A DNA stretch of 49,897 nucleotides from an uncultured Phycisphaeraceae bacterium (lineage in GTDB: Bacteria; Planctomycetota; Phycisphaerae; Phycisphaerales; UBA1924): contig CAZIMT010000001.1 of the NCBI GenBank assembly GCA_964540295.1, positions 15,913 through 65,809 on the forward strand, read 5' to 3'. The notes under the pieces are model-generated. The model did not search any database and had not been told where the DNA came from. It worked only from the letters and a program-made list of their open reading frames with translations. The translations under genes and the position numbers were made by a program. Below are positions 28 through 23,467 of this stretch, in pieces (position 1 is the first letter of the stretch; each line of letters begins with the position of its first letter).

Positions 28-906
28 ATGTCGGTCCAATCTCTAGCGATGTCTGTGCCGGTTCAATCAACACATGCCGCCGCTCCCGCAGCGCTGCCGT
101 CGATCCGGTTGCTCGGCGTGCCGTTGCACTCGACGACACTGGCGGGCGCGGTGGACCACATCGCGCGATCCGCGCAGGCCAGCGTCGGCGGCTGGGTGAT
201 CACGCCCAACCTCGACATCCTGCGGCGGCTGGTGCGCGAGCCGGAGTTCGTGGCGCTGTCGTCGGGCGCGACGCTGCGGCTGGCCGACGGGCAGATCTTG
301 GTGTGGGCCAGTCGCTTGCGAGGATCACCGCTGCCCGAGCGGGTGGCAGGCTCGGACCTGATCTGGGCCTTGACCGCCCGGGCCGCGCATGACGGGCTTG
401 GTGTGTTCTTTCTTGGCGGGAACCCGGGGTCGGCGCAGTCTGCGGCTCAGGTGCTGACGTCCAAGAACCCCGGGCTCCGCGTCGCGGGAATCGAATGCCC
501 GCCGTTCGGGTTCGAGAACGATGCCGAGTACGGAGCACGGCTGCGCGAGATGATCCGTGCGGCCAACCCGGCGATCGTGTACGTGGCGCTCGGCTCGCCC
601 AAGCAGGAGAAACTGATCGCTCAGTTGCGTGAAATAGTCCCCGGTGCGTGGCTGCTGGGCATCGGGGTGACGTTCAGCTTTGTGAGTGGCGAGCTGCGGC
701 GGGCACCTGTTTGGGTCCGCAAGCTCGGGATGGAATGGTCGCACCGGCTGATCCAAGAGCCGCGTCGGCTGGCGAAAAGGTACCTGGTGCAGGGGCTGCC
801 CTTCGCTGGGCGCCTGCTCGGGGGTTCCGTGCTTGATCGCCTTACGGGGAAGCAACACAGCGACAGGCTGTCATCCTCGTCGGCGGCGTCTGGCGCGGCC
901 TCGTGA
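28..906 (+). CDS. WecB/TagA/CpsF-family (GT26) glycosyltransferase
   Basis: ORF 25..906 has GTG at 25 and its first ATG at 28. The translation carries the family pattern: ITPNLDIL, LADGQILVWA, VFFLGGNPG, VALGSPKQEKL and GELRRAPVWVRKLGMEWSHRLIQEPRRLAKRY. Confidence 0.85.
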   Translation: MSVQSLAMSVPVQSTHAAAPAALPSIRLLGVPLHSTTLAGAVDHIARSAQASVGGWVITPNLDILRRLVREPEFVALSSGATLRLADGQILVWASRLRGSPLPERVAGSDLIWALTARAAHDGLGVFFLGGNPGSAQSAAQVLTSKNPGLRVAGIECPPFGFENDAEYGARLREMIRAANPAIVYVALGSPKQEKLIAQLREIVPGAWLLGIGVTFSFVSGELRRAPVWVRKLGMEWSHRLIQEPRRLAKRYLVQGLPFAGRLLGGSVLDRLTGKQHSDRLSSSSAASGAAS

Positions 907-1222
907 CCGTCTCTCGGCGAGCCGCAGACGGGTGGAAAACTCGGGCGGCTTTGGGAAAGCTCGAACCTGAACCGGCTGGGGTACGTACGGTGTGAACACC
1001 GCGGCGTTGAGTGGTTCCCTCCATCGCGTGGATCTGTTCGGGGCAAAGAACGACCAATTCGAGACTGCGTACCGGCCGATGGAAGAAGAACGCTCGCGCG
1101 GCCGATGTTTTCGATTGATCGAATGATCCAGTGTTTTTTAGGGGCGATCGGTTCCAACGAGCGCGCCGAATCGCGGTTATCGCTCTGTCATCGGTGCGGG
1201 CGGCGGCGGCCCGATCGAGAGC

Positions 1223-2305
1223 GTGAGTCCTCGCTTCCATCTGGCGCACGCCTTGGAACGGCTTGGAATCTCGCCGACGCGGGGCGCGCGAGGTCGGAGG
1301 TCGCGTGAAGAGGAGAGTTTGCAGAACGTGAGAAGTCCAGGTTCCATCTCAGAAAGCGATGCACGGACGGACGGGGCGCTCGCTCCGCGATCGCTCGAGT
1401 CGATTCGTGGGCGCTTCCGCGGCCTGATCCTGCTGGCTGGTTCGCCGCGTGAGGGCCGGCTGGCGCGCGCCGTCGGTCGATCGGTCCTTGACCTGCCCGT
1501 TCGCTCGGGGAGTTCGATTCTGGCGGTGTGGGCCAAGCAGGCGGCCCAAGTCGCGGAGGCGTTGGGAGTACCCGAGTGCCGCGTGCGTGTGATCCTGAAC
1601 AAGGCCGCTCGCAAGCCCGAGGTGCTGGGCTTTGCGGAAAAGTTTCCTTCTGTCAAGCTGTCGGTAGAGTTTGATCGGGAAGAGTTCCGAGGGACTGGCG
1701 GGCTGCTGCGTGATTTGGCGGAAGACTACCTCCCGGGTGACTTGGTGCTGGTGTGCAACGGAAACCAAGTGGTCCTGGACCCGCTTGCGACGTTACTTGA
1801 ATCGCTCGTTCAGGTACCGTCGGACGTGGGCATACTCGCGTCCGAAGACGGGGCACCGCTCGGTCTGAAACTCTTTGACGCGGCTATTTTTCGTGAGATC
1901 AAAGCCAAGGGGTTTGTGGATCTGAACGAGCAGGCGCTCCCGGCGCTGGTGCGGACCCACGACGTGCGTGTGGTGACGTCAAATCGAACCGCCATCTACC
2001 CCGTTCGAGAATTGGACGATTACATCCACGCGCTGCACGCCGCGAACACTCCTGAATCAGAGACTCGTTCCGACCCGCTCGCCGAAGATTGGTTCGAGAG
2101 CTTCCGTCTGGTGGAAGAGGGCGCGACGATCGGGGCCGGGGCTCGCGTTCACGACTCGATCGTGCTTAAGGGTGGACGGGTTGGGGCGGGGGCGTTGCTG
2201 GTTCGTTCGGTGGTCTGTCCGGGCGCGGAGGTCGCGGCTGGGGAGGTTGTTTCTGACCAGGTTGTGTCGAGCGGCGCCTCGCGCGCGCGGGAGGCGTCGC
2301 GGTGA
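1223..2305 (+). CDS. Sugar-nucleotidyltransferase-like protein with a C-terminal left-handed beta-helix and a degenerate N-terminal signature
   Basis: LILLAGSPREGRLARAVGRSVLDLPV resembles the nucleotidyltransferase LAGGxGtRLxPLT...PKxxLPV loop but has lost the GxGtR core. EFRGTGGLLRDL resembles the E..LGTAGAL motif. The C-terminal hexapeptide-like run is GATIGAGARVHDSIVLKGGRVGAGALLVRSVVCPGAEVAAGEVV. There is no internal Met, so the start is non-ATG. GTG 1223 opens the ORF, and GTG 1328 lies 10 nt after GAGGAGAG as an alternative. The stop overlaps the exosortase start (GTGA at 2302-2305). Confidence 0.55.
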   Translation: MSPRFHLAHALERLGISPTRGARGRRSREEESLQNVRSPGSISESDARTDGALAPRSLESIRGRFRGLILLAGSPREGRLARAVGRSVLDLPVRSGSSILAVWAKQAAQVAEALGVPECRVRVILNKAARKPEVLGFAEKFPSVKLSVEFDREEFRGTGGLLRDLAEDYLPGDLVLVCNGNQVVLDPLATLLESLVQVPSDVGILASEDGAPLGLKLFDAAIFREIKAKGFVDLNEQALPALVRTHDVRVVTSNRTAIYPVRELDDYIHALHAANTPESETRSDPLAEDWFESFRLVEEGATIGAGARVHDSIVLKGGRVGAGALLVRSVVCPGAEVAAGEVVSDQVVSSGASRAREASR

Positions 2306-3180
2306 AACGTCATTTCCTGGCCCGGCAAGGTTGGACGATATGGCACCCGGCGGTCGCTCTCGCGCTGGCGGCGATCGGGGTGTTCCTCACCCGCGCCGCG
2401 TGGGATGACATCCGGAAGATCGCGATGGTCGACGAGGAACAGAGCCACATTTTCCTCGTGCCGTTGGTCGCGGCCTGGATGATCTGGGTGCGTCGGTTCC
2501 GGCTTCGGAACTGCGCCCCGGCCGGGACGATCGTGGGGCCAATTGTCGTGGCGGCCGGCTGGCTTTGCTCGTTCGTGGGGTACACCGACGCGATCCAATC
2601 GGTGTGGCACTTGGGCGCGGTGCTGGTGGCGGTGGGGTGTTTGTTGAGCGTGCTGGGTGTGAACGTGCTCTTCCGATTCATGCCCGCGTTTGCGGTGCTT
2701 GTCTTTCTGGTGCCGATGCCAAACGCAATCCGGCAGATGATCTCGATCCCGCTGCAGACCGCGACCGCCGCGACGACTCAGGTCATCCTGGAAACGCTGG
2801 GAGTCGCGATCGAACGCAACGGGAACGTGCTCTCGATCAACAACATTGAAGTGGCGGTGGCCGAGGCCTGCAACGGGATGCGCATGGTGTTCGCGCTGGT
2901 GCTGGTGTCCTACGCGTTCGCGTTCGGGATGCCGCTGCGGAACTTCATGCGTGTGATCGTGCTCGTCGCCAGCCCGTTCGCGGCGATCCTCTGCAACGTG
3001 CTGCGGCTGATCCCGACGATCCTGCTCTTTGGGTATTCGAGCAGCGAAGTGGCGACCGCATTCCACGATATTAGCGGGTGGCTGATGCTGCCGATCGCCT
3101 TTGGGATCCTGCTGGGCGTCGTGCGGACCCTGAGCTGGGCCCTGATCCCGGTGAACCGTTTTACACTCGCGTACCAGTAA
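2302..3180 (+). CDS. Exosortase (EpsH/Xrt family, about 8-TM transpeptidase)
   Basis: Polytopic membrane protein of 292 aa carrying the three exosortase signature motifs. They are AEAC190NGMR (Cys codon 2869-2871), CNVLR235LIP (Arg codon 3004-3006) and AFH255DISGWL (His codon 3064-3066). An EpsI gene follows directly. Confidence 0.9.
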   Translation: MKRHFLARQGWTIWHPAVALALAAIGVFLTRAAWDDIRKIAMVDEEQSHIFLVPLVAAWMIWVRRFRLRNCAPAGTIVGPIVVAAGWLCSFVGYTDAIQSVWHLGAVLVAVGCLLSVLGVNVLFRFMPAFAVLVFLVPMPNAIRQMISIPLQTATAATTQVILETLGVAIERNGNVLSINNIEVAVAEACNGMRMVFALVLVSYAFAFGMPLRNFMRVIVLVASPFAAILCNVLRLIPTILLFGYSSSEVATAFHDISGWLMLPIAFGILLGVVRTLSWALIPVNRFTLAYQ

Positions 3181-3218
3181 CCCCCTTGTGTGATCGATCA
3201 AACCTGCTCGGGAGTTTC

Positions 3219-3893
3219 ATGAAGTTCTTCGCACCAATCCTCTGCCTGGCGTTGCTCGGCGGCGTCTACTTCGAGACTCGCGGTCACCCGCGCCCCGAGA
3301 ACGCGGCCCCGTTCCACGCGGCGGTCGCCCGGAGCGTGGCGGAGATCCCGATGAACATCGGGCAGTGGGCGGGCACGGACCAGACGATGCCCCCTGCGGC
3401 CCAGGCGCTGCTCCGCCCCAACGCGGCGCTGTGCCGAACCTACCGCAGCACGATCTCCGGCCGAGAGGTGAGTCTGATCGTGATCCAGTGCAAGGACTCG
3501 CGCGACATGGCGGGGCACTACCCGCCTCGTTGTTACCCCGGCAGCGGCTGGGAAGAGTCCTCGGCCCAGAGGCCGTTATTGATGAAGGTCGCCGACACCG
3601 AGATCCCGGTGGTCCGCTACGAGTACCAGCGGCGCGGTCTGGGTGACGCGCAGAAGCTGGCGATCTACGGCTTCTTCGTTCTGCCCGGGCGTGGGATCGT
3701 GACGAGCATGACCGAAGTGTACAAGGCGGCGGAGTTTTACGCGGCCCGTCCGTTCGGCGCGGCGCAGATCCAGCTGGTGGTTGACGCGACGAGCGATGAC
3801 GACGGTGATGCGGTCGCGTTCAACGAACTCATGGCGCCGCTGTTGTCCACCGTGGCCAAGCTCCGCAGCTCGCCGGAAGAGGTTTCTCAATGA
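3219..3893 (+). CDS. EpsI-family exosortase-associated protein
   Basis: ATG at 3219 inside ORF 3078..3893 avoids overlap with the exosortase gene. It has an N-terminal membrane anchor (MKFFAPILCLALLGGVYF). The motif GHYPPRCYPGSGWE matches the EpsI HsPxxCLPGxGW-type motif. The gene sits immediately downstream of the exosortase, and its stop overlaps the next start (ATGA at 3890-3893). Confidence 0.75.
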   Translation: MKFFAPILCLALLGGVYFETRGHPRPENAAPFHAAVARSVAEIPMNIGQWAGTDQTMPPAAQALLRPNAALCRTYRSTISGREVSLIVIQCKDSRDMAGHYPPRCYPGSGWEESSAQRPLLMKVADTEIPVVRYEYQRRGLGDAQKLAIYGFFVLPGRGIVTSMTEVYKAAEFYAARPFGAAQIQLVVDATSDDDGDAVAFNELMAPLLSTVAKLRSSPEEVSQ

Positions 3894-6235
3894 CCCGAAC
3901 AGTGCAAGTCTCGAAGCTACCCGGATCAGGACAGAGCGGCGGTTCTGGACGTTACAGCTTTCCGGCCCTCCCAGATTCGTTCGGGGGCTTTGACATTCCT
4001 CAGGCTGCTCCGCAGACGCCGCACGCGGACGTTTTCCGAACGATCCACCGCCGCTTGCGCGGCCGATACCTGCTCGCCTCCGTGCTGGGTGTGATCTGCG
4101 CCGCGGCGGGCGGGGCGGCCGGGTACTTCTCGCAGAGGCCGATGTTCAAGTGCGAGACGTCGATCCGTGTCGTGATGATGGAAATGACCGTGCTCGGGCA
4201 GGATCATGAGTATCAGAACCGCATCAACCAGTTCAACACCATCATCTCGACGCAGGCGAGCTTCCTGCAGTCCGCGCGAGTGATCTCCAAAGCCATGGAG
4301 AGCGAAGCGTGGTCGGCGCTGGGCCGGCCAAGAACCAACGAGGTCGAGCAGCAGTTCCGCGACTCCCTCAAGATCATCCCTCAGCGTGATTCCCCCGAGC
4401 TCATCAGCGTGTCGTTCCAGGATCCCAACCCGCGTGCAGCCAAGGCCGGGCTTGAGAGCGTGGTGCTGGCGTACGACGATATTTATGTCAAGGCCGAGAA
4501 CGCCGGGGTTGACCAGTCGGCGATGAGGTTGCTCGAGGAAGAGCAGAAGACCTTCACCGCTGAACTCAAGGGCTATGAAGCCGAGATCGCCGCGGCGACC
4601 AAGGACCTTCCGACAAGCAACGCCGCGATGTTCCAGGAAAGTATCGTTTCCCAGCTCTTCCGTCTTGACGAGATCATCGCCGACCTCACGGTGAGAATCA
4701 CGAACGCGGGTGGGTCCGTTCAGGCCGTCGCAGGGGGCACCGGCGCCGCGGGCGATGGCGGGAAGTCCACAAGCCCGGGATCGTCTAGAGCGGCGACGCC
4801 CAGGTTGATGACGGCTTACGAGATCTATTCCGCAGGCGACGAGGAAATGATGGGTCTGCTCAACAAGCGTCGAGCCCTGGACGAGAAGCTCGACAGCGTC
4901 CGTGCCAACGGGGCCACCGAAGAGCACATGGATGTCAAGCGAATCAAAAAACTGATCGAGACCTCGGATCAGAAGATCAAGGACTACGTGAACACCTGGA
5001 ACGCGGACGGCGGCTTCGGGAAGGACCCCCAGGTAGTCGGCACCACTCGCCCCGAGACGCTCGAGCAGATGAGCACTCGCCTCCAACGCCTCGAGGAACA
5101 ACACAAGAAATGGAACGAAGAAGCGAAGAGCTATAAGCAGCTCGCCCTCTTGGTGGCGGACAAGCGAGATCTGATTCGACACAAGCGGGAGAGACTGGCC
5201 GAAGTTGAAACAGCGCTCTCCGGTTTCCGCATGAAGCTCCGGGCCCGCCAGGAGCAGCCTCTTGTTCAGATCGACCGCGATATCCCAACGCCTCGAGCGC
5301 CAGCCTTTGACCGCCGCAAAAAAATCGGTGCTATCGGCTTCGTGATGGGCGGCATGCTCCCCTTCGGTCTTTTCATGCTCTACGGCGTGCTCGACCGGCG
5401 CTTCCGCTACTCCGACCAGGCGGGTGAACAGAGTTCCGGGCTGCCGTTGCTGGGGATCCTGCCCGAGTTGCCCAGCAACCTGAGCGACCCCGAAGAGGCG
5501 GCCGCGGCGGCGCACTGCGTGCATCAGATGCGCACCATGCTTCAGATCAGCGGAGGAAGCCGGAAGGTGTACGCGATCACCAGCGCCACCTCGGGCGACG
5601 GCAAGACCTGCCTCACGCTCTCGCTGGGGCTCTCGTTCGCGGCCTCTGGGTCCAAGACCCTGCTCGTCGATTTCGACCTTGTCGGTCAGGGGCTGTCCTC
5701 CAAGCTCAAGATCCGCCCCGAGCACGGCATGGCCAGCTCGCTCGAAACCGGTCAGCCCGGCGACAGCATCGTGGCGACCAAGATCGATCGCCTTTTCCTG
5801 CTGCCCGCGGGCCGGCACGACGAAGAGTTCGTCTCACACCTCTCGCGCCCGATGGTCCAGCAGGCGATCGACGCGGTGCGCGACGACTACGACGTCATCA
5901 TCATCGATACCGGGCCCGTGCTCGGAAGCCTCGAAGCCAACTTCGTGACCTCGCAGGCCGAGGGCGTGGTGCTGGTGGTGGGGCGGAACCAGCATCGCTC
6001 GCTGGTGCAGCGAGCCGAGCAGCATCTGATCACCCTGGGTGCGCGAGTCATCGGCCAGGTGTTTAACCGGGCGCTCTCGACAGACTTCAAGTCTTCGATG
6101 AGTTCGGCGTCGATGCGGTCCACGCGGAGCACGCCGGGGAAACCGGTGACCGCGATCCAGATCGCCAAGGCCGACGACAGTTTGTTGGAGCTCGACCCCG
6201 TGTCACGTACGGTCGCGCTGGATATCCGCCGATGA
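3890..6235 (+). CDS. Polysaccharide co-polymerase (Wzz/GumC-like) fused to a BY-kinase-type P-loop ATPase
   Basis: Two TM segments (YLLASVLGVICAAAGGAAGYF and IGAIGFVMGGMLPFGLFMLYGVL) flank a long coiled-coil region. The C-terminal domain has Walker A ITSATSGDGKTC, Walker A' LLVDFDL and Walker B DYDVIIIDTGP. Confidence 0.85.
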   Translation: MTRTVQVSKLPGSGQSGGSGRYSFPALPDSFGGFDIPQAAPQTPHADVFRTIHRRLRGRYLLASVLGVICAAAGGAAGYFSQRPMFKCETSIRVVMMEMTVLGQDHEYQNRINQFNTIISTQASFLQSARVISKAMESEAWSALGRPRTNEVEQQFRDSLKIIPQRDSPELISVSFQDPNPRAAKAGLESVVLAYDDIYVKAENAGVDQSAMRLLEEEQKTFTAELKGYEAEIAAATKDLPTSNAAMFQESIVSQLFRLDEIIADLTVRITNAGGSVQAVAGGTGAAGDGGKSTSPGSSRAATPRLMTAYEIYSAGDEEMMGLLNKRRALDEKLDSVRANGATEEHMDVKRIKKLIETSDQKIKDYVNTWNADGGFGKDPQVVGTTRPETLEQMSTRLQRLEEQHKKWNEEAKSYKQLALLVADKRDLIRHKRERLAEVETALSGFRMKLRARQEQPLVQIDRDIPTPRAPAFDRRKKIGAIGFVMGGMLPFGLFMLYGVLDRRFRYSDQAGEQSSGLPLLGILPELPSNLSDPEEAAAAAHCVHQMRTMLQISGGSRKVYAITSATSGDGKTCLTLSLGLSFAASGSKTLLVDFDLVGQGLSSKLKIRPEHGMASSLETGQPGDSIVATKIDRLFLLPAGRHDEEFVSHLSRPMVQQAIDAVRDDYDVIIIDTGPVLGSLEANFVTSQAEGVVLVVGRNQHRSLVQRAEQHLITLGARVIGQVFNRALSTDFKSSMSSASMRSTRSTPGKPVTAIQIAKADDSLLELDPVSRTVALDIRR

Positions 6236-6314
6236 TTGATCGTGATCCGCACAACAACTTTGCCCTCGTGGCGGAGCGGGTGAACACGAACGCGAACGGA
6301 AACGACGAGCCACT

Positions 6315-7727
6315 ATGACCGCACACCCGAGTCTTCAGAAGTACACCGTGTGGGGGCTGGACCCGATCCAGCTGCACGCGCGGTTCTGGGCCTCACGCGG
6401 CGTGCAGATCGTGCGTCCCGGCGAGCTGACGGAGATCGTCCCCCACGCGGAACTTTTTCTGCTGCTCGACCCGCGCATGCTCACGGTCTTCCGCCTCGCG
6501 GCGATCCTCGACACGCTCAGTTGGCTCGAACCGGAGCTTACGACGGTGCGGGTGCGCGACGCCGCACGCGAAGGGTACCGCGAGCATGTGGTGACCAACG
6601 CGAGCGGGCGGTTCGTGCGTTTCAAGCGTGTGTACCACGGCTCGGACCCTCGTATGGCGCGGGTGGGCCTGACCTCGGATCGCGAACTGGCGCGGCTCTG
6701 GCAGGGGACGCTCGACGCCAAGGCCGGGTGGGCCCAGCTCCGGCGTTACGTGCGGAAGTCCGCCCGGTACACCGCGACGTTGAAGGGCAGAGTCTTCGAC
6801 GCCACACACCCTGAAGAGATCGCGGGCTTCACCCGCGAGTTGCTCCAGCAATGGACACGCCCCGACGCCACGGTGTCGCGTGTCCGTCAGGTCGGCGACC
6901 GAATCTGGGCGGATGATTCGGCCAAGGTGGCCCCGGGCCCGGGCATCCGCGGCCCGCTCTGGATCGGCGCGGGCCGAGACCTGGCCGCCGGGGCCACGGC
7001 GATCGGGCCCTCGGTGATGTGGGACGCGCCCGGCCAGCGGCCCGAAGACAAGGGTATCAAGTGGCTCGAACTCGAACCGTTGTCACAGCCGATCCCGCAG
7101 ATCGCGCGGCGAAAACTCGCGCCCTCGCGCGGGATCAAGCGGGCGTTCGATATCGCCTTCTCGCTCGTCGCGCTCTTCTTCACGCTCCCTCTTTACCCGA
7201 TCCTTGCCGCGGCGATCGTGATCGAGGACGGGTTCCCCGTCTTCTTCCGGCACCGCCGCGAGACCATGGGCGGACAAGAGTTCGGATGCCTCAAGTTTCG
7301 ATCGATGCGCAACGACGCGGAAAAAATGAAGGCCCAGCTCGTGGGCAAGAATCAGGCGGACGGCCCGCAGTTCTTCATGAAAGACGATCCCAGGAACACC
7401 AGGGTCGGCAAGCTGCTACGCGACCTGCAGCTCGACGAGCTGCCTCAGTTCATCAACGTCCTCCGCGGCGACATGTCCGTCGTCGGTCCCAGGCCCAGCC
7501 CGTTCAAAGAGAACCAGTATTGCCCGCCCTGGCGCGAGGCTCGGCTGAGCGTGCGCCCGGGGCTTACCGGGCTCTGGCAGATCAGCCGCACTCGGGCCGA
7601 GGGAACGGACTTTCAGGAGTGGATCAAGTTTGACATCGAATACGTCGAGCGTCAGTCGTTCTTCTTTGACCTGTGGATCATCTGGAGAACCGTCGCGATG
7701 CTGGTGCGGAGGCTCACACGCTCGTGA
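6315..7727 (+). CDS. Priming polyprenyl-phosphate sugar-phosphate transferase (bacterial sugar transferase family) with a soluble N-terminal extension of about 270 aa
   Basis: The C-terminal 200 aa match the family: KRAFDIAFSLVALFFTLPLYPILAAAIVIEDGFPVFFRHRR, GCLKFRSMRNDAE, DDPRNTRVGKLLRDLQLDELPQFINVLRGDMSVVGPRP and RPGLTGLWQI. I saw no hydrophobic segment in the first roughly 270 aa. Confidence 0.85.
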   Translation: MTAHPSLQKYTVWGLDPIQLHARFWASRGVQIVRPGELTEIVPHAELFLLLDPRMLTVFRLAAILDTLSWLEPELTTVRVRDAAREGYREHVVTNASGRFVRFKRVYHGSDPRMARVGLTSDRELARLWQGTLDAKAGWAQLRRYVRKSARYTATLKGRVFDATHPEEIAGFTRELLQQWTRPDATVSRVRQVGDRIWADDSAKVAPGPGIRGPLWIGAGRDLAAGATAIGPSVMWDAPGQRPEDKGIKWLELEPLSQPIPQIARRKLAPSRGIKRAFDIAFSLVALFFTLPLYPILAAAIVIEDGFPVFFRHRRETMGGQEFGCLKFRSMRNDAEKMKAQLVGKNQADGPQFFMKDDPRNTRVGKLLRDLQLDELPQFINVLRGDMSVVGPRPSPFKENQYCPPWREARLSVRPGLTGLWQISRTRAEGTDFQEWIKFDIEYVERQSFFFDLWIIWRTVAMLVRRLTRS

Positions 7728-7751
7728 AATCCTGTTTGTGAGAAGCTCGCG

Positions 7752-7779
7752 ATGAGAATGAACATATGAGAATGAACCC
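7752..7779 (+). repeat. Tandem 14-bp duplication of the TPR-gene start region that creates a 5-codon upstream mini-ORF
   Basis: ATGAGAATGAACAT (7752-7765) is followed directly by ATGAGAATGAACCC (7766-7779), identical at 12 of 14 positions. The first copy reads ATG AGA ATG AAC ATA TGA (MRMNI*). Its stop (7767-7769) overlaps the ATG at 7766 of the 1568-aa ORF, which itself starts MRMN. Confidence 0.8.
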
Positions 7780-10700
7780 GAAGACGGCCCGACGGTTGCT
7801 CCTCATCGCCGCCGTGGTGGTGGTTGTGGTCGCGTCTCTTGTGAGCGTGTTCGTCGTCCGCACGTGGCAGATCACACGCCGCGCCGACGCCCTGAGGTCG
7901 CAAGGGCTGGACCACTTCGAGAAGAAGGAGTACGCCAGCACGCTCGACAAGCTCGGGCCCTACCTCCGCGTCCTGGCTCACCAGACCGACCGACAGGCCT
8001 TGATCGTCTACGGCAAGGCGCGCGAAGCCATCGAGGAAGGAAATCTCCGCCATATCCGCGAGTCCATCGCCGTGTACCGCACGGCCTTCGAGCTCGATCC
8101 CACCGACCACGCGACCGGGCTCACCCTCCTCCGTCACTACAACACCATCGGCTTCAGCCCCGAGGCACGCGATCTGGCGGTCCGCCTGCGCCCCGCAAAT
8201 CTCTCGGACACGACCGCGCGAGATCTCGAAGCATTACGCGGGGAAGTGACCGCGCGGATCGTGCTCAAGGCCTACGACGCTCAACTCGACAAACTCCTCG
8301 GCCGCATCATCGAGCTGGCGCCCGACGACTTTGGAGCGCACCTGACCTGGATCCACGCTCTGCGTCAGACCGGCAGGCCCGAAGCCGCGGTGGTCCACAC
8401 CCGGGACATCGTTCAAAGGTTCAACACCGATCCACGATTCCAGTACATCGAGGCCATCGCGAAGCTCGACGATTCAGGCTCGCAGAACGGGAGCGTGGAT
8501 GCGTTCTTCAAGAGTCTGTGTACGCTCAGCGGGCTGGACCCTCAAAGCGCGGAGCGGCGTGAGGCGGTCACCTATACCGACCCCATGTTCATCGCGCGGC
8601 TCATCGGCTCGTTCGACGCGACCTTCCATTCCCCGCATTCGCTGGCGGTTCTTCGAGAGGCCTCGGCCCGCATCCCCGACGCGGACCTTCTTCGCGCGTT
8701 CGTCCGTCGCGCGTGGCAGGCGGGCTCCCACCAGGAAGTCGTCGACCGGCTCGCGTCGAACAACGCCCCCATATCCGGGACTCACTCAGAATTACTCGCG
8801 TTCAAGGCGATGAGCCTCACTCAGCTGGGGAGGGGGAACGAACTCGCGGCCATCGTCGAAGAGCTCAAGCGCCGGCGCGACGACTTCCGCGCGCGAGCTT
8901 GGGCGCTGGCGCTGGACAAGTTCACCGACACGAGCGTCGCCGGCCGGGTAGCGTCCGTGAAGAATCTTCAGGCCGCGCAGCGTGAAGACCCCTCCGAGCC
9001 GATCCTCGCATTCGCACTGGGCGAGGCGCTGGTCGCCCTGGATCGCACGGAAGAAGCACGCGAGCAGTGGCAGCTCGCGACGACCTCCCCGCTCTCTAAT
9101 GGCTGGGCCGCGCCACACTCACGCAACTCGGCGACGCTGGTGGGGCAAGGCAGGCTCGACGAGGCGTTGCGTGCGGCCGAGCGAAGCCGACAGATCTCGC
9201 CCGGAGACCCGGTGACGAACATCGCGCTGCTCGGTGCCAAGCTCGCCATGATCGAAGCGGGGTATCGTCCTCAAGAAGACCCTCAGGCCATGCTCGCGCA
9301 GATCGAGCGTGCTCTCGCGCAGACCGCCCGCGTCGCCGACGACAAAGCCTCCCGCGGTTTGCGCGAAGTGCTGATCCCCGGTCGTGTCCTGCTGCTGGCG
9401 TATATGGGTGACGCCGAGGGCGCGAGTTCAGCCCTTAAAGAGGAGCTCGACCGAACCCCGCCAGCCGATCCGAGCGTGCTGGCGCACTTGGCGCTCATCT
9501 CAGGCAGCTACAAGCTCGGGCACCAGTACGAGTGTCTTGATCTGGCGCAGAAGCTGAGCCCCAGCGACCCGGTGCTCGGACTGACTCGTGCGCTCTTGTT
9601 GCACCGCGACGGGAAGACCGAGGAGGGCTCGCGGTCCATCACGGCCGCGGCCGCACAGTCGGACCCGTCGCAATCCAAGGGCTGGAAGATCGCGGAGGCT
9701 CGTTACCTCGACTCCATCAACAGCGAGCGATCACTTCCGAATTGGATCGACCTAGCCGACGCCAACCCCGAGGACCTTCAGGTGCAGCTCGCGGCCATCG
9801 AGTCGCGCGCGGCATCCGCGGACCTGGCGTTCGTGGACCGAGTCGGCCAGCGAGTCGCGCGCCTAGGCGGGTCGGACTCGCAGCGTCCCACCATCACCGG
9901 CCGACTCGCACGCGTCCGCGCGATCCTCGCCTCGGACGTCACCAAGGACCGGCGCGACGAAGTTCTCTCACTCATCCGGAGCGTCACCAACGAAGCGCCC
10001 GACCTCCTCGAGCCCAGGCGGCTCATGGTTCAGGCCCTTCTGCTGGAAAACCCGGAGCGTGGGATCAAACCTGACTTCTCGGCCGCCGTCGAACAGCTCA
10101 AAGCGCTCTCGCAGATCGTGCCCGATCGATCAACGGTCTCGCTTCAGATCGCCCAGATCTATCAACGGCAGCGCGATCGAGACCGCGCACGCGACGAACT
10201 CAACCGAGTGCTCAGCGACGCATCAGCACCGCGGGCAGCGCGCGAGCGGGCCTTGGAGATGCTCCTGGCGCAACGCGAGTATGCGGCCGCGATCCCCTCG
10301 TTGCAGGCGGACGTCTCGGCCGCGGGGAAGGACGCCCCACCAGCGATGCTCCTGAACCTCGCGACAGCGCTGCGCGGATCGCGCCGCACGGATGAGGCTC
10401 TCACCGTGTTCCGTCGGCTTGCCGCGGGTCCGATCTCAAACGGCGAGCAAGTGTTCAGCATCGCGGACGGGCTGGCCACATGCGGCGATCGTTCCGAGGC
10501 CGTCGCCGTGATCGCCAAAGTCGATGCCCTCAAGCAGGAGCCCGGCGTCGCCGAGTGGATCCGAGGCCGATTCGAGGCTCGCCACGGAGACCCAACTGCG
10601 GCCGCGGCTCTGCTCGAGCGGTCGGTCGAGCTTGGCCCCAAGTCATCCGCCTTGTGGCATGATCTCGTCACGCTCCACCTGTCGCGGCGCGACTTTGCCA

Positions 10701-12472
10701 AGGCTCGGGACGCGGTGGAGCGCGGGCTCAAGAGCGTTCCCGAGAGCCAGGAATTAGCTGTGCTGCAGCAACAGGTTGCGATCGGCGCGGACGGCGAGAG
10801 TGCGAGCCTTGCGGCGCTCATCGAAACTCTCTCAAAGGATCCACGAAACGGCGATCGAGTTGCCGGGCTCAAGGCGGTCGAAGACGCGCGAGTACGCGGC
10901 CAACTCAGCGACGTGAAGTCGCTCTCGGAGTTGGCCTCCAAGTTCCCCGACGACGCGGGCGTGCAGGCTGTCGTGCTGCGTTCGTTGCTAGATCTCAGAC
11001 CGCCGCGGCTCGACTTGGCGGTGAATATCGCGAAGCGTTCTCAGGCTTCCTTCCCAGATTCCCCGGGGATTGCTCGCCTCTCGGTCGCGGCTTTCCGCGC
11101 TTCGGGTGATTGGACCAGGATGCAGGCCGCCGCTCTCGCATGGGAGCAGGCCGCAGGGTCCGTCGAGTCACGCCTAGCCCTGGCCGAGGCCGAGCTTCGC
11201 GGCGGGCGTGCGTCGCGCGCGATGAACTCGATCCTCCCCTTGATCGAGAGCGCCAAGGCCGCTCCTGACGAGTCGATCAACGCGAGCGTGCTCGAACTCG
11301 CGTGCCGGGCGATGATCGACCTCGACCGCGAGCCAGATGCGTTCGCGATCTTGTCGCCCCTTCTTGCCGGATCGAGCGCGGTGCGATCCAAGGTCTGGCC
11401 GGGGCTCGTTGCGTCCGCGATCAAGACCGGTGCCGCGGCCGAGCGATGGTCAAACCATCTTCTCGGCGTCGCCAAGCAAGACGACGCGACGGCCCGCGAA
11501 GCGATCGCGGGCGCGTGCCTCGACGCCGCGCAGCGCACTCCCGATCGGAAAACCGAACTGCTCAACCTCGCCAAGAGTGTGCTGAGCAAGCTGGCCGCCG
11601 CGTCTGCTCCCAGCGATATGGTGCTCGCGCGGCTCGGGCTTGCGCAGCAGATGCTGGGCGAGTCGCAGGCCGCGGCCGCGTCGTACCGTCGTGCCCTCGA
11701 AATCAATCCCAAGTCCGCCACAGCGATGAGCAACCTCACCGACCTCGCGATCGCGGGCGGCGCGGACCTCAACGAAACGCTGGCCGCCGCAGAGCGGGCT
11801 GTCGCCGCGGGCGAGGCTCAAGATGGGATGGTCCTGTTCGCGCTCGCAAAGCTCCAGACCGCCAAGGCCGAGGACACGAGCGGCGAGGCGGCCGGTGCCG
11901 AGCGTGAGAACCTGCGGAAGGCGCTCGCCAGCTACCGGTCGGCGCTGTCCCTGATCCCCGATCAGTTTGAGATCGCGCTCCGGGCGGGAGATCTTTACGG
12001 TCGTTTGGGAGACCAGGCGGCCGCTCTGGAGATGTTTGATCGCGTCCTGCTCACGCCGAATCTCGCTCCCCAAGTTGAGTCGATGGCGCAGAACAACGCC
12101 GCGTTCGCGCTGCTCCAGCTCAAACGAAACACCTCGGACCTGTCCCGGGCACGCGATCTCGCAAGGTCGGCCGTGAAGACCCAGGAGAATGCCAGCTTCC
12201 TCGACACGCTCGGCCAAGTCGAACTCGCCGTCGGGGACCGCCCGCAAGCTCAGGCCGCGTTCCGTCGCGCGCTGCAGTTAGAGCCCGCACTCGGCTCGTC
12301 TTTGCTCGGACTCGCCGCGGCGCTTCAGGGAGGAACGGACGTCGAGCGCACCGAAGCCTCCCAGGTTCTCGCTCGGGCAGAAAGCTTGCTCCTCACTCGC
12401 CCTCAGGAATACTCGGCGGAAGAGCGAGCGGCGATCAAGGCGTTACGTGCAAAGCTCTCTCAGGCAAACTGA
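7766..12472 (+). CDS. Giant membrane-anchored TPR-repeat protein (PrsT-like role in exosortase loci)
   Basis: A 1568-aa ORF with an N-terminal TM anchor (LLLIAAVVVVVVASLVSVFVV). The remainder is Ala/Leu-rich helical-repeat sequence with many TPR-like units, for example AAASYRRALEINPKSATAMSNL and AQAAFRRALQLEPALGSSLLGLA. It lies in the exosortase operon, and a hairpin plus T-run terminator follows it. Confidence 0.8.
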   Translation: MRMNPKTARRLLLIAAVVVVVVASLVSVFVVRTWQITRRADALRSQGLDHFEKKEYASTLDKLGPYLRVLAHQTDRQALIVYGKAREAIEEGNLRHIRESIAVYRTAFELDPTDHATGLTLLRHYNTIGFSPEARDLAVRLRPANLSDTTARDLEALRGEVTARIVLKAYDAQLDKLLGRIIELAPDDFGAHLTWIHALRQTGRPEAAVVHTRDIVQRFNTDPRFQYIEAIAKLDDSGSQNGSVDAFFKSLCTLSGLDPQSAERREAVTYTDPMFIARLIGSFDATFHSPHSLAVLREASARIPDADLLRAFVRRAWQAGSHQEVVDRLASNNAPISGTHSELLAFKAMSLTQLGRGNELAAIVEELKRRRDDFRARAWALALDKFTDTSVAGRVASVKNLQAAQREDPSEPILAFALGEALVALDRTEEAREQWQLATTSPLSNGWAAPHSRNSATLVGQGRLDEALRAAERSRQISPGDPVTNIALLGAKLAMIEAGYRPQEDPQAMLAQIERALAQTARVADDKASRGLREVLIPGRVLLLAYMGDAEGASSALKEELDRTPPADPSVLAHLALISGSYKLGHQYECLDLAQKLSPSDPVLGLTRALLLHRDGKTEEGSRSITAAAAQSDPSQSKGWKIAEARYLDSINSERSLPNWIDLADANPEDLQVQLAAIESRAASADLAFVDRVGQRVARLGGSDSQRPTITGRLARVRAILASDVTKDRRDEVLSLIRSVTNEAPDLLEPRRLMVQALLLENPERGIKPDFSAAVEQLKALSQIVPDRSTVSLQIAQIYQRQRDRDRARDELNRVLSDASAPRAARERALEMLLAQREYAAAIPSLQADVSAAGKDAPPAMLLNLATALRGSRRTDEALTVFRRLAAGPISNGEQVFSIADGLATCGDRSEAVAVIAKVDALKQEPGVAEWIRGRFEARHGDPTAAAALLERSVELGPKSSALWHDLVTLHLSRRDFAKARDAVERGLKSVPESQELAVLQQQVAIGADGESASLAALIETLSKDPRNGDRVAGLKAVEDARVRGQLSDVKSLSELASKFPDDAGVQAVVLRSLLDLRPPRLDLAVNIAKRSQASFPDSPGIARLSVAAFRASGDWTRMQAAALAWEQAAGSVESRLALAEAELRGGRASRAMNSILPLIESAKAAPDESINASVLELACRAMIDLDREPDAFAILSPLLAGSSAVRSKVWPGLVASAIKTGAAAERWSNHLLGVAKQDDATAREAIAGACLDAAQRTPDRKTELLNLAKSVLSKLAAASAPSDMVLARLGLAQQMLGESQAAAASYRRALEINPKSATAMSNLTDLAIAGGADLNETLAAAERAVAAGEAQDGMVLFALAKLQTAKAEDTSGEAAGAERENLRKALASYRSALSLIPDQFEIALRAGDLYGRLGDQAAALEMFDRVLLTPNLAPQVESMAQNNAAFALLQLKRNTSDLSRARDLARSAVKTQENASFLDTLGQVELAVGDRPQAQAAFRRALQLEPALGSSLLGLAAALQGGTDVERTEASQVLARAESLLLTRPQEYSAEERAAIKALRAKLSQAN

Positions 12473-12502
12473 CCGACTGATAGCCTCTAGATTAACACCT
12501 CA

Positions 12503-12531
12503 CCACGGCCCTGCGGCCGTGGTTTCTTTTT
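12503..12531 (+). terminator. Rho-independent terminator after the TPR gene
   Basis: CCACGGCC (12503-12510), loop CTGC, then GGCCGTGG (12515-12522) form a perfect 8-bp GC-rich stem. TTTCTTTTT follows directly, 31 nt after the stop at 12472. Confidence 0.65.
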
Positions 12532-12924
12532 GGACGACCGGGAAGCCTGTCAAGCCCTCGGGGGCAACGCCGATCGTAGCTCGCGTGGCTCGCGTCGAGC
12601 TAAAATAACTCCTAACAAAAATTTGCATTCGTGTCACGTCAATTTTGGCCATTCTGGCCGGAATTTTCTTGTAGATTCTGAAGTCACTCCCTGAACAGGG
12701 TAAAATCCCTTAAGTTGGAGCGCGCTGAGCCTTCCACCTGCCGTCTTCCTTTAAAAGAAGGAGCGTTCGGGCTGATCGGTTTAGCGCAGCAGAGAACGTT
12801 TGACGCACTGATTGAGTGGCCCGGGGCCGGTCGGATGGACTTGGCTCTTCGCGGTCATCAAAGCCAGTCTGTCTATGGTTCGCGATGTTTGGTTTATATT
12901 TGGATTGGTTGCAGAGAAGAGGCG

Positions 12925-13629
12925 ATGAAGAAGCTGCTCGAAAATGTCACCCGGACGGTTCTCGGGCCTCAGACCTTGGCTCTGGTCGGCTTGGTGATGT
13001 GGGCCTTGGTCGGTTCCGCAGCGTTGGCGGGCACCACCTCGATTGAAATGAAGAACGCTATCTTCCCGAGCCTTCGCGGCCCGAGTTTTCGCCCGCTTGC
13101 AGCGCCGCGTTCTCAAGGCTCGCTTTCGGAAATCTTTGCGGAGTCTCCCGCGAAGTTTGAGGGCGTCACGAGCCTCGGGCGAGGCGAAGTTGAGACCAAC
13201 GATTTTGGCGCGATGCTTTGGGCAGGCCGAGATGGCGGGGAGGACGAGTTGGGCACGCAGATCCCCTATCTCTCCGAGAAGTTCATCACCCACGCTCTCA
13301 TCGGTTCGGAGATCCGCGGCCTGGTGCTCCTTGATCGGAGCGCGGCCTCGGGTCAGTCTCGAGTACGGCTTGTCGAACTCAGTCTCGAGGCGGAGAAGTC
13401 GGCCAGCGAGACGAACTCAACCAAGGGCTCGAACTCATCGCTGGTCGACGGTTCTCGGAACCGGGGGTTTGTTCAAGCGGCCAACGTGTATTCTCTCGGT
13501 GTGACACGTAACGATTTTCAGAACTCGTTCGTCTACGTTCCGCTGCCGCCAGCCACCCATATCGGCGTGTTGGCTCTAGGAATGATCGGGCTGGGTCATG
13601 TTCGTCGGAACCATCGCCACAAGGCTTAG
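12925..13629 (+). CDS. Secreted protein with a VPLPPA-type exosortase (PEP-CTERM-like) C-terminal sorting signal (cargo 1)
   Basis: ATG 12925 lies inside ORF 12715..13629, which opens with TTG. The N-terminus is signal-peptide-like (MKKLLENVTRTVLGPQTLALVGLVMWALVGSAALAG). The C-terminus is VYVPLPPATHIGVLALGMIGLGHVRRNHRHKA, which gives a motif (VPLP at 13537-13548), a hydrophobic helix and a basic tail. Confidence 0.7.
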   Translation: MKKLLENVTRTVLGPQTLALVGLVMWALVGSAALAGTTSIEMKNAIFPSLRGPSFRPLAAPRSQGSLSEIFAESPAKFEGVTSLGRGEVETNDFGAMLWAGRDGGEDELGTQIPYLSEKFITHALIGSEIRGLVLLDRSAASGQSRVRLVELSLEAEKSASETNSTKGSNSSLVDGSRNRGFVQAANVYSLGVTRNDFQNSFVYVPLPPATHIGVLALGMIGLGHVRRNHRHKA

Positions 13630-14016
13630 CGTTATTGTTCTTTGTTTGTGCTTGATCTTGCTTGGACGTGCTCGTGATTCATCGAGTTCTCGGAGCTGCT
13701 TTGTGAATGAGGGCGTCAGATATTTCTCGGCGAAACGTACACTGGTAAGTTTTTTGTCTTTACGGGAACTGCAAAGAACTGCCTGCGAAAAGGCTGAGAC
13801 TTTGGAGAGTTTGATGCTGATTTTGCTTGGGACAATCTACCCAGATCGCCAAGGGAAAAAACCCTTGGACCTTGCATTCTTCGTCGATTGATGCATAGTT
13901 CGTATGTCTTGACTCAGATGGCTTTGAATCGGTTGGGTCTGGTAAGAAAACCTGTCAAAAAAGTGATCGTTCTTCTCGATTTTGGACGCGTTTGAGTGTA
14001 TCATACTTCGTAGCTC

Positions 14017-14171: not shown

Positions 14172-14837
14172 ATGAAGAATTCTGTGTTGTTGTCAGCAGT
14201 AGGGTTGGCCTTGGTGGCGAGTAGCGCGGCGTCAGCCGCTACGATTCGCATGGACCTTTCCACTCACCCGGCCAACGGGATGCGCGGTCAGTACACGGCC
14301 ACGGTGCTCAGCGGGTTCGCGGGCATCATCGACGTGACCGGGGTCGGGTCGAGCTTCGACACGTTCTGCCTCGAGAAGAACGAGTTCTTCATTCCCGGCC
14401 AGAACTACTCCGCAACGCTCGACGTCGCGGCCCGCAACGGCGGCGTGTCGGGCGGCTCGAACGGTGCGGACCCGATTAGCCCCGCGACCGCGTACCTCTA
14501 CACGCAGTTCCGGGATGGCAATCTCGGTTTCAGCAGCTTCACGAACTCCAGCGACTCCGAAGCCCTTCAAGATGCCCTCTGGTTTCTCGAAGGTGAGATC
14601 TTCTCGGTCTCCGGGCAGGCCCAGACGCTTGTCAACCAGGCGCTCGCGGCTGGGTGGACAGACATCGGCAACGTTCGCGTCCTCAACATTATCGGGCCGA
14701 ACGGTTCCTCGGGCAACGGCAGCGCGCAAAGCCAGCTCGCCATGGTTCCTCTCCCCGCCGCCGCTTGGGCAGGGATCGCCGGGCTCGGTGGTGTGATCGC
14801 CCACAACATCCGCCGTCGCCGGGCTCTGAACGCCTAA
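14172..14837 (+). CDS. Secreted protein with a VPLPAA-type exosortase C-terminal sorting signal (cargo 2), carrying thioester-domain-like Cys/Gln motifs
   Basis: A strong RBS (AAGAGGAGA) precedes the ATG. The signal peptide is MKNSVLLSAVGLALVASSAASAA. The C-terminus is LAMVPLPAAAWAGIAGLGGVIAHNIRRRRALNA (VPLP at 14745-14756). Internal motifs are TFC66LE (Cys codon 14367-14369) and ALQ133DALW (Gln codon 14568-14570). Confidence 0.8.
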   Translation: MKNSVLLSAVGLALVASSAASAATIRMDLSTHPANGMRGQYTATVLSGFAGIIDVTGVGSSFDTFCLEKNEFFIPGQNYSATLDVAARNGGVSGGSNGADPISPATAYLYTQFRDGNLGFSSFTNSSDSEALQDALWFLEGEIFSVSGQAQTLVNQALAAGWTDIGNVRVLNIIGPNGSSGNGSAQSQLAMVPLPAAAWAGIAGLGGVIAHNIRRRRALNA

Positions 14838-15184
14838 TCGTTCGATCTGAGCCCTTTTAGGGCCAGATCACGCCTAGTACAGACTCAGCAAATGACAGCT
14901 TTCCACGATCGCTCCGGGCCTACCCGGGGCGATTTTCATTGTCTCAACCACTTTTTGCATCAGGGGGTGGCGCGTGCGAACAGATTCTGTACCATCATCA
15001 TTGGTAACGACTAGGTTGGAGTCTGGCGGGGACGGCGTTGCATTTGGGTGATCTGGCTTTTCTTCAGCGGCCGGGATAGGCCTCGAGTGAGGCACGAGAA
15101 CGCAGTCTCGCGTGGTCTCAGGAGTTTGGCCCGCTGGCGAAAGGCTCTCGTGGAGGGATGTGGGTGAGCGGATGGGAATTGACC

Positions 15185-16162
15185 ATGCCACGAATGTTGA
15201 CGGCGGTCGCGATCGCGATGACGCTCGTCTGGCCGCGGTGCTGTGACGCTCGCGAAGACTTCGTGAGCGCTCGGTACATCGGTCCTACAGACGGTTACAC
15301 GCGGAAGATCGCGATCCAGATCGAGCAGTCCTCGATCTACAGTGGCATCGTCGATGTTGGACCGATTGACTATCAGTTTTTCGGCCCCGCGGACGGGACC
15401 GGTCGTTCGCTGGTCGGTGCTGTAATGCCCACGTTCGGCGTGGAGGTGGAGACCCCGCTCCAGAGCGAGCGCCGTTACACGCTGACTGAGATCGCGTTCG
15501 GACCCGAGCCGGTGGTGACGAATCTGGCGAGCCCGGGCCATTACGGTCAACGGCGTCAATCGCTCGTCCACGCGGTGGTCGGCGCGGCGATCCAGCTCGG
15601 TTGGCTGCGTCTCGACGGCACGATCCAAGATTCACTCAATGACAACCTGAACCGAGATCGGATGGCGGCGGTGCAGTTGTTGGTGTGGGAGTCAGTGTTC
15701 GAAACGCGCGAGGCACCAGAGCGGTGGAGTTTGGCGGACGGGAGCTTCACGGCTTCAATGGGCCAGACTCCGGGCGTGAAGATGGAACTGGTGACTCTCG
15801 CGGAGCACGCGACGACGATGCTGGAAGGGAACCTTCGCGTCGAGGGCCTGCGGACGATGACCACTAGGGATTCGCAGGACCGGCTGGTGATCGTGAGGAC
15901 GCCGGAGCGTACACGAAGGCTGGTTCGCCGCGTCAATGGCGCGGCCGAGTACTTCGACAGTTCTGACACGAGTTCTCTGGATCCGAACGCGGCTATTCAG
16001 GGCCCGACCCCAGGGTCGCCCAACTCGGGCGGGTTCACGGTGTTCTCGCCGCCCCCGTTCCCGCCCACGTCGAACGTGGTGCCGCTGCCGCCAGCGGTCT
16101 GGCCCGGCATCGCTGCGATTATCCTCGTGGCTCTTTACCAGAGCCGAAAGCGTGCGGCCTGA
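15185..16162 (+). CDS. Secreted protein with a VPLPPA-type exosortase C-terminal sorting signal (cargo 3), a Cys-less paralog of cargo 2
   Basis: The ORF is 15158..16162. ATG 15185 gives the signal-like N-terminus MPRMLTAVAIAMTLVWPRCCDA, but the start is uncertain (15158, 15185 or 15194). The C-terminus is SNVVPLPPAVWPGIAAIILVALYQSRKRAA (VPLP at 16079-16090). TFGVEVE and AVQLLVWE align with TFCLEKN and ALQDALWF of cargo 2. Confidence 0.7.
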   Translation: MPRMLTAVAIAMTLVWPRCCDAREDFVSARYIGPTDGYTRKIAIQIEQSSIYSGIVDVGPIDYQFFGPADGTGRSLVGAVMPTFGVEVETPLQSERRYTLTEIAFGPEPVVTNLASPGHYGQRRQSLVHAVVGAAIQLGWLRLDGTIQDSLNDNLNRDRMAAVQLLVWESVFETREAPERWSLADGSFTASMGQTPGVKMELVTLAEHATTMLEGNLRVEGLRTMTTRDSQDRLVIVRTPERTRRLVRRVNGAAEYFDSSDTSSLDPNAAIQGPTPGSPNSGGFTVFSPPPFPPTSNVVPLPPAVWPGIAAIILVALYQSRKRAA

Positions 16163-23464: not shown

Positions 23465-23467
23465 CGC

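Follow-up and report, generated by a model that had tools for sequence, protein, structure and literature searches.

Gene content and organization of the exosortase locus

The analysed window, a stretch of 49,897 nucleotides from an uncultured Phycisphaeraceae bacterium, begins with a run of forward-strand genes for polysaccharide synthesis and an exosortase, followed by three genes for secreted proteins that carry a VPLP-type C-terminal tag. The region is very probably the core of a Phycisphaerales locus that combines exopolysaccharide (EPS) biosynthesis with protein sorting by an exosortase. The enzyme lineage and its tag are covered by none of the named NCBIfam exosortase subfamilies or sorting-signal models, and together they form a new, unmodelled subfamily within a well-known class of systems.

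Seven co-directional genes, from a glycosyltransferase to a tetratricopeptide repeat (TPR) protein, lie where the preliminary description had placed them, as confirmed with the open reading frame (ORF) list, Pfam, and NCBIfam. The first, at 25-906 (+), encodes a GT26 (WecG/TagA/CpsF family) glycosyltransferase, matching PF03808 at 190.4 bits and TIGR00696 at 134 bits against a cut-off of 69, and starts at 49 in the public gene call. The second, at 1223-2305 (+), encodes a nucleotidyltransferase (NTP-transferase)-like protein with a C-terminal left-handed beta-helix (LbH), supported by weak LbH matches, in an ORF of 360 amino acids (aa). Its start is uncertain (1223, 1319, or 1430), and the 360-aa product has no public record because the public gene calls, of 259 to 328 aa, start later. 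When 24 homologues are combined into a profile, it matches the LbH of eIF2B-gamma and of GMPPA (E ~1e-3), and this part also resembles GDP-mannose pyrophosphorylases; the N-terminal G-x-G-x-R-like motif is degenerate. A single-sequence AlphaFold2 (AF2) model of the protein has a mean predicted local distance difference test (pLDDT) score of 41 and is confident only at residues 240-290, the LbH part.

The exosortase gene at 2302-3180 (+) encodes a polytopic membrane protein of 292 aa with 7 hydrophobic segments in a crude scan, matching PF09721 at 170.4 bits against 25.7. Residues Cys190, Arg235, and His255, for which a catalytic role has been proposed in the literature, were described as intact from the window sequence, and they show no variation among 18 homologues. 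EpsI, the exosortase-associated periplasmic partner, is encoded by a separate gene at 3219-3893 (+), exceeding PF11984 (65.4 bits against 26.1) and falling 1.4 bits under the cut-off of TIGR02914 (41.4 against 42.8); a longer ORF from 3078 is unused in public gene calls. Both reported start/stop overlaps are present in the sequence, GTGA at 2302-2305 between the NTP-transferase-like stop and the exosortase start, and ATGA at 3890-3893 between EpsI and the next gene.

That gene, at 3890-6235 (+), encodes a 781-aa Wzz-like polysaccharide co-polymerase fused to a P-loop ATPase domain resembling bacterial tyrosine kinases (BY-kinases; PF13614), with two transmembrane (TM) segments at residues ~60-78 and 479-497. 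It scores 99.1 bits on the BY-kinase model TIGR01007 (Wzc/EpsG type), under the cut-off of 108. There is no Tyr in its last 70 aa, and 109 of 142 homologues have none in their last 40 aa. The domain thus lacks the C-terminal tyrosine cluster of BY-kinases and may be an ATPase rather than an autokinase.

A priming polyprenyl-phosphate sugar-phosphate transferase (Bac_transf) of 470 aa follows at 6315-7727 (+), with PF02397 at 207.5 bits over residues 275-464. Its score on TIGR03025, 250.7 bits, stays below the cut-off of 295.6, since another domain stands where the N-terminal part is usually found. This domain (270 aa, 6315-7124) is conserved, contains many invariant Trp residues, and gave no significant Pfam or PDB-sequence match in profile searches; its single-sequence AF2 model has a pLDDT of 33. 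Over its full length, the transferase retains 49-67% identity across the class Phycisphaerae. Homology between the N-terminal domain and the NTP-transferase-like protein was considered and dropped, since BLASTP and hhalign returned nothing.

The last gene of the run, at 7766-12472 (+), encodes a TPR protein matching multiple TPR Pfam families, and its 1568 aa and single N-terminal TM anchor (residues 5-23) bear out the description of it as very large and membrane-anchored. It scores 83.5 bits on the PrsT model against a cut-off of 312. The terminator proposed after it corresponds to a hairpin with a T-run at 12502-12533 (+), 30 nt past the TPR stop, comprising a 9-bp stem with 7 GC pairs followed by TTCTTTTTGG. 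The feature is present, but the total count of terminator-like sites around it equals the shuffle expectation, and the hairpin is therefore suggestive by position alone.

Three cargo genes follow on the same strand. Cargo 1 (12925-13629; 234 aa in the public gene call) has a VPLPPA end with the tail VYVPLPPATHIGVLALGMIGLGHVRRNHRHKA, cargo 2 (14172-14837; 221 aa) has a VPLPAAAW end with the tail MVPLPAAAWAGIAGLGGVIAHNIRRRRALNA, and cargo 3 (15158-16162, start 15158 or 15185) has a VPLPPAVW end with the tail VVPLPPAVWPGIAAIILVALYQSRKRAA. In each, the VPLP motif is succeeded by a hydrophobic stretch and then a basic cluster. Mutual resemblance is confined to these tails, and the N-termini, judged by eye, are signal-peptide-like. 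The genes are separated by spacers of 320-540 bp. A six-frame scan of the whole window for such tails recovered these three genes, located after the TPR gene as first described, together with one 89-aa ORF stretch at 18372-18641 that passed the loose filter through a chance 'VPCP' and was judged spurious. The sigma-54 promoter consensus was not enriched and did not occur ahead of the cargo genes, whose upstream sequences also shared no convincing repeat. The G+C content falls to 0.57 over 12000-14000, a span covering the first cargo genes and spacers, against ~0.65 elsewhere in the window. Directly after cargo 3, a gene at 16217-16822 (+) encodes a 201-aa ankyrin-repeat protein with a lipoprotein-like N-terminus (…GGCKG) and no sorting tail.

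Exosortase lineage, cassette conservation, and the C-terminal tag

Scoring against NCBIfam release 20, with its 19 named exosortase subfamilies, separates the window exosortase from all of them. It passes the generic models only, TIGR02602 (123.8 bits against 105.55) and TIGR04178 (46.7 against 23). The best named model is XrtA (TIGR03109) at 128.2 bits against a cut-off of 208, followed by XrtD (TIGR04152) at 114.6 against 400, over its N-terminal half only, XrtW at 102.5 against 425, XrtV at 84 against 313, XrtB at 68 against 275, and CrtB at 46 against 300. All 18 clade members likewise fail every named subfamily, the best reaching XrtA at E 5.3e-41 (~141 bits), and ten distant relatives with 33-52% identity also remain below all cut-offs, with XrtA scores of 78-126 bits. 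Thus, the scoring proposed in the preliminary description yielded no clean XrtA-type assignment, either for the enzyme or for its relatives.

An exhaustive search of 1.84 billion representatives places 184 clusters at E<=1e-30, with identity grading from 60% to 33%. Many of these clusters are exosortase-EpsI fusions of 520-590 aa; among the ten relatives scored, the fused ones match XrtD best, at 97-145 bits against 400. Three of ten relatives that were looked up carry names (Phycisphaeraceae, Humisphaera, and Planctomycetota), and all are annotated generically. An exosortase-domain tree computed by neighbour joining (NJ), with 60 sequences, 100 bootstraps, and XrtA and XrtD references taken from annotated plasmids, recovers the window clade plus these relatives as a monophyletic group in 99 replicates, XrtA in 97, and XrtD in all 100. 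Of the 100 replicates, 41 place XrtA as sister of the Phycisphaerae clade and 1 places XrtD there, and the window enzyme is 20-27% identical to either (22-23% for XrtD). Given this separation from XrtD, the VPLP core common to both groups of cargo was probably not inherited, and the likeness appears to be convergent. The tree intermixes split forms (~290 aa, with EpsI encoded separately) and fused ones (520-590 aa), pointing to repeated fusion or fission of exosortase and EpsI.

The enzyme has ~1,200 or more close homologues of ~292 aa, annotated only as 'exosortase/archaeosortase family protein'. Those with an organism name all belong to Phycisphaerae/Planctomycetota, except one metagenome-assembled genome (MAG) labelled Bacillota, and the guess of a Planctomycetes-Verrucomicrobia-Chlamydiae (PVC)-type genome was therefore correct. 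With one genome per species, 526 matching stretches were found. The best 80 of these 526 are MAGs or isolates of Phycisphaerae type (Phycisphaerales and Tepidisphaerales), a few being labelled Planctomycetaceae, Bacillota, or 'uncultured bacterium', and they include the cultured carriers Fontivita pretiosa (NZ_CP191258.1), Mucisphaera (NZ_CBDIIJ010000002.1), and strain ZRK34 (CP050848.1). The MAG contigs JAXMAJ010000001.1 and CBDIPV010000001.1, of 2-3 Mb, carry the cassette as well. The exosortase protein itself occurs on 16 public contigs, among them JGI Ga0105047_10000226 (87.8 kb), and the GT26 protein led to the same locus on a 306-kb ENA contig (ERZ27246993 k141_1960242). Further copies of the cassette, diverged to 54-58% identity in the priming transferase, are found in the metagenome containing the source contig of the window (Ga0105047_10004867) and in a sister sample (Ga0105046), indicating that several Phycisphaerae populations with the system coexist there. 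A search of the full-text literature found no description of an exosortase system in Phycisphaerae.

Synteny was examined at 84 loci by tblastn with the window proteins, the lower counts arising partly from truncated contigs. Order and strand are retained for six genes, namely the NTP-transferase-like gene directly upstream of the exosortase (83 of 84 loci), the exosortase (84), EpsI directly after it (84), the Wzz/P-loop co-polymerase (81), the priming transferase (76), and the giant TPR gene after it (73). GT26 occupies the same position in 59 of 84. The strict conservation of the NTP-transferase-like protein, the priming-transferase N-terminal domain, and the giant TPR protein suggests that they are system-specific subunits.

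Upstream, the cassette is flanked by variable sugar-modifying and glycosyltransferase genes. The 10 kb preceding the window, recovered from public contigs, encode a polysaccharide deacetylase, a GT2, a FemAB-like protein (Acetyltransf_6), a 220-aa protein, a second GT2, a formyltransferase/GINT1_N protein, a GT4, a further GT2, and a nucleotide-sugar dehydrogenase resembling UDP-N-acetylmannosamine (UDP-ManNAc) dehydrogenase. Together with GT26, this last gene suggests that the polysaccharide probably contains ManNAc(A). The deacetylase and the FemAB-like protein here, and an asparagine synthase in Fontivita, are accessory families that resemble those of XrtA loci.

Genes with tails of the cargo type recur after the cassette. 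Loci from the species-representative genomes extend hardly beyond the TPR stop codon; an ORF captured after it ends in VPLPPAAW, IIPLPPAAW, VPLPTAAF, and similar sequences. A metagenome scan with the priming-transferase alignment provided 80 loci reaching ~5 kb past the TPR gene, in which tail genes form arrays of one to four after it, on the same strand and in divergent genomes. From 48 unique tails adjoining the cassette, nearly all just downstream of the TPR gene, the consensus is [VI]PLP[PTA]AAWAG[LM]..GL…RRRR. Position 1 is V in 36 tails and I in 11, and positions 2 and 4 are P in all 48. Position 3, which corresponds to the Glu of the PEP motif, is L in 41, V in 3, and E in none. Variation at position 5 (P 29, T 6, A 5) is followed by A at positions 6 (42) and 7 (34), W (33) or F (5) at position 8, A at position 9 (32), G at position 10 (38), L (30) or M (8) at position 11, and L at position 14 (39), after which comes an Arg-rich end. 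The literal core VPLP[PTA]A occurs in 41 of the 48 tails, the likeness to VPLPA extending over five residues only.

Neither tail model recognizes these sequences. The Phycisphaerae tails reach at most 15.0 bits on PEP_CTERM TIGR02595 (cut-off 16), with 14.4 for another, and at most 7.2 on VPLPA-CTERM TIGR03370 (cut-off 25.35). As positive controls, a Roseobacter VPLPA-CTERM tail scores 37.4 on TIGR03370 and a PEP-tailed homologue 30.4 on TIGR02595. The architecture fits a broad PEP-CTERM-type signal, with a motif, a TM helix, and a basic cluster at the extreme C-terminus, modular across unrelated proteins. A tail-only profile search of a 5.8-billion-protein database returned only gene fragments of 27-81 aa, not usable as a census; the few names among them fit Phycisphaerae and Tepidisphaeraceae. 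In line with the expected co-distribution of VPLP tails with the exosortase, such tails lie beside the cassette in many independent genomes and metagenome contigs, and this co-location, along with the subfamily scores, supports the proposal of a distinct exosortase subsystem, one that extends the known class of systems.

The passenger domain of cargo 2 relates the tag to the classical signal. It has 160 detectable homologues, and the tails of the best 120 of these comprise 36 PLP, 31 PEP, 29 PAP, 9 PTP, 6 PVP, and 4 PIP. The Pfam PEP-CTERM model PF07589 matches 26 of the 31 PEP tails, none of the 36 PLP tails, and none of the PAP tails. The Glu of the PEP motif has been described as 'near-invariant' (Haft et al. 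2006, PMC1569441), yet within this one passenger family the residue at its position varies from homologue to homologue, apparently by lineage. Source names are few, two PAP tails coming from Sedimentisphaerales and one PEP tail from Syntrophus, and it is their location beside the cassette that ties PLP tails to Phycisphaerae. Homologues of cargo 2 occur directly after the TPR gene in other genomes, one of them, PLP-tailed, in a Phycisphaerae MAG. Since one passenger family carries PEP, PLP, PAP, or PTP tails, the [VI]PLPxAAW tag is, judged by these homologues, a variant of the PEP-CTERM signal. The description of the cargo motif as VPLPxA instead of PEP is accordingly upheld by the absence of Glu from all 48 tails, but not as a signal separate from PEP-CTERM. 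For one PAP-tailed Sedimentisphaerales homologue, no exosortase was found within 10 kb on either side. Another PLP-tailed homologue (locus L089, 5530-16228) lies away from any exosortase, beside type VI secretion-like genes for PAAR, VgrG-like Phage_GPD, and ClpV-like AAA proteins.

Proposed sorting mechanism and competing explanations

The proposed mechanism is inferred by analogy with the archaeosortase precedent and with the PEP-CTERM hypothesis (PMC1569441). Cargo would be exported by Sec and kept in the membrane by its C-terminal helix and basic cluster. EpsI and the exosortase, the latter working as a membrane cysteine transpeptidase, would then recognize PLPxAAW at the periplasmic face and remove the anchor, after which the cleaved protein would be released or moved to a surface acceptor. 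Sorting would proceed in step with the polysaccharide begun by the adjacent priming transferase. The PEP glutamate would not be required by the Phycisphaerae lineage, with Leu standing in its place.

Several points weigh against an EPS and exosortase sorting locus with its own lineage and tag. The pairing of exosortase and tail is drawn from gene adjacency. Of the 42 loci that extend 1.5 kb or more past the TPR gene, only 21 have at least one tail gene by a strict detector, about 5 more having degenerate SPLAAWQ-type tails, and cargo genes are also found elsewhere in genomes, away from the cassette. Related genomes were seen as ~20 kb windows, leaving room for a second exosortase or ordinary PEP-CTERM cargo elsewhere. 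As a simple NJ reconstruction, the tree draws on few XrtA and XrtD references and leaves most other named subfamilies unrepresented. Furthermore, the pathway is incomplete as seen. Neither a match to the Wza, Wzx, or Wzy families nor any candidate polytopic membrane protein occurs in the window, as first described, or in the 10 kb upstream, where export and polymerase genes had been sought. This last absence is weak evidence. In Fontivita pretiosa (locus L075), the region upstream of the cassette (2340-3845 and 6876-8846) encodes a 501-aa ORF that has ~9 TM segments, lacks a Pfam match, and may be a polymerase or flippase, as well as an AsnB-type amidotransferase.

The first three of these points also bear on the explanation that the VPLP tails are not exosortase substrates at all, being plain membrane anchors or substrates of another enzyme that adjoin the cassette through a common cell-surface role. 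The pairing in the Phycisphaerae lineage is deduced from gene adjacency, half of the loci lack a tail gene directly downstream, and homologous cargo genes also lie away from the cassette. However, a 10-residue signature is kept at the extreme C-terminus across unrelated passenger domains, which is the behaviour of a recognition tag rather than of a simple anchor. The tag is also interchangeable with genuine PEP-CTERM in the same passenger family, and arrays of one to four tail genes appear repeatedly after the cassette on the same strand in divergent genomes. This explanation is improbable.

A slightly slimmer chance attaches to an ordinary XrtA/PEP-CTERM system, in which the VPLP tails would be a trivial local deviation and standard PEP-CTERM cargo would be abundant elsewhere in the genome. 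The likeness to the XrtA/PEP-CTERM/EpsH-EpsI system of Proteobacteria (PMC1569441; TIGR03109, TIGR02595, TIGR02914, TIGR02917) is substantial. Both place an exosortase and EpsI in an EPS locus with a chain-length determinant, a tyrosine-kinase-like ATPase, a priming transferase (EpsB_2-like), and a TPR protein, with deacetylase, FemAB-like, and AsnB-like accessory genes close by. In both, cargo carries the tripartite C-terminal signal and is encoded by single genes behind long intergenic regions, with little homology outside the tail. XrtA is moreover the best named model for the window exosortase and the nearest named group in the tree, and some tails lie barely under the PEP_CTERM cut-off. 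Against this, the enzyme remains 80 bits short of the XrtA cut-off and even the best clade member stays well below it, identity to XrtA is low, and the clade stands apart with near-complete bootstrap support. The cassette-adjacent tails have Leu for the near-invariant Glu of PEP, followed by a conserved AAWAG. No family match to the PrsK/PrsR two-component system, whose absence from the window had been reported, exists in the window or the 10 kb upstream, the cargo genes have no sigma-54 motif upstream, and the PrsT model is far from passed. The Phycisphaerae TPR protein is TM-anchored with 1568 aa, whereas the XrtA-type protein is a lipoprotein of ~900 aa; the kinase-like domain lacks the tyrosine cluster, the exosortase is preceded by the conserved NTP-transferase-like gene, and the priming transferase has a unique N-terminal domain. 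The NCBI pipeline, too, assigns generic names only.

The least credible explanation is membership of the known XrtD/VPLPA-CTERM system of Rhodobacterales (TIGR04152, TIGR03370), split into two genes: although that system combines the literal core VPLP[AP] with an exosortase in an EPS locus and adjacent cargo genes, EpsI and exosortase here both match the XrtD model, which is also the best model for the fused relatives, and NCBI calls one Planctomycetota fragment a 'VPLPA-CTERM sorting domain-containing protein', enzyme and tag both score far under the XrtD and VPLPA cut-offs, the single bootstrap grouping and low identity argue against kinship, XrtD is an EpsI fusion (genuine proteins of 529-534 aa; model ~490-530 aa), and its cargo reads VPLPASALLL.GLGGLGAMRGFGRKS where the Phycisphaerae signal continues as AAWAGL..GL...RRRR, limiting the likeness to the five-residue core.

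Two further systems offer comparison. ArtA/PGF-CTERM of Haloferax volcanii belongs to a homologous superfamily, as indicated by the TIGR04178 match. It also uses a tripartite C-terminal signal and provides experimental precedent for tail cleavage and covalent re-anchoring; it is archaeal, with a different motif, no link to an EPS locus, and a lipid acceptor. In two bacterial cases, the Nostoc punctiforme cyanoexosortase B (PMC12188702) and PepA, a PEP-CTERM protein of flocculation, genetics ties enzyme or cargo to surface phenotypes such as motility, biofilm, and floc formation. These systems differ from the Phycisphaerae locus in belonging to other subfamilies with classical PEP tags, the window exosortase being far below the CrtB cut-off.

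Beyond the EPS and sorting locus itself, a broader and more doubtful reading takes all ~184 clusters (50% identity) of the Phycisphaerae radiation, in split and fused form alike, as a separate exosortase family that co-evolved with the glutamate-free [VI]PLPxAAW, while sister lineages would read PAP and PTP. In this reading the products of the six-gene cassette, among them the NTP-transferase-like protein, the co-polymerase ATPase without its tyrosines, and the priming transferase whose N-terminal domain is unique, would work as a self-contained machine attaching cleaved proteins to a dedicated glycan or lipid-linked acceptor. We consider this joint reading rather unlikely; if true, it would supply a natural series for how exosortases read tags.

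About two dozen exosortase-tag pairs are already catalogued, and the concept of an exosortase system is unchanged by the Phycisphaerae locus. Environmental bacteria contain many exosortase systems, of which very few have been studied by experiment, and their annotation relies almost entirely on subfamily-specific models. The annotation gap is class-wide, the enzyme, where public sources name it, being named at family level and the cargo 'hypothetical protein', so that Phycisphaerae surface proteomes are probably under-called. A model pair for the enzyme clade and the [VI]PLPxAAW tag would label many proteins and permit phylogenetic profiling. The cargo 2 family, with its PEP, PLP, PAP, and PTP tails, offers a comparison for determining which exosortase residues read the tag and for any catalytic role of the PEP Glu.

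Other genes in the window

Beyond the ankyrin-repeat gene, the region 16930-32407, mostly on the reverse strand, contains an aryl-polyene, xanthomonadin, or flexirubin-like lipid-pigment cluster. It encodes a UbiE-type methyltransferase, a GT2, an MMPL exporter, an AMP-ligase, an FAD halogenase-like protein, and an FkbO/Hyg5 chorismatase, along with a 799-aa ketosynthase/chain-length factor (KS/CLF) fusion, an LpxL-like acyltransferase, a LolA-like protein, and two PlsC acyltransferases. The gene at 32795-36691 (-) encodes a protein of 1298 aa in which HEAT repeats and DUF7133 are joined to a glucose/sorbosone-dehydrogenase-like domain, with cytochrome c at the C-terminus. Genes of the oxidative pentose-phosphate pathway follow it, comprising a gnd-like gene at 36387-37316, zwf at 37325-38779, and pgl at 38779-39525.

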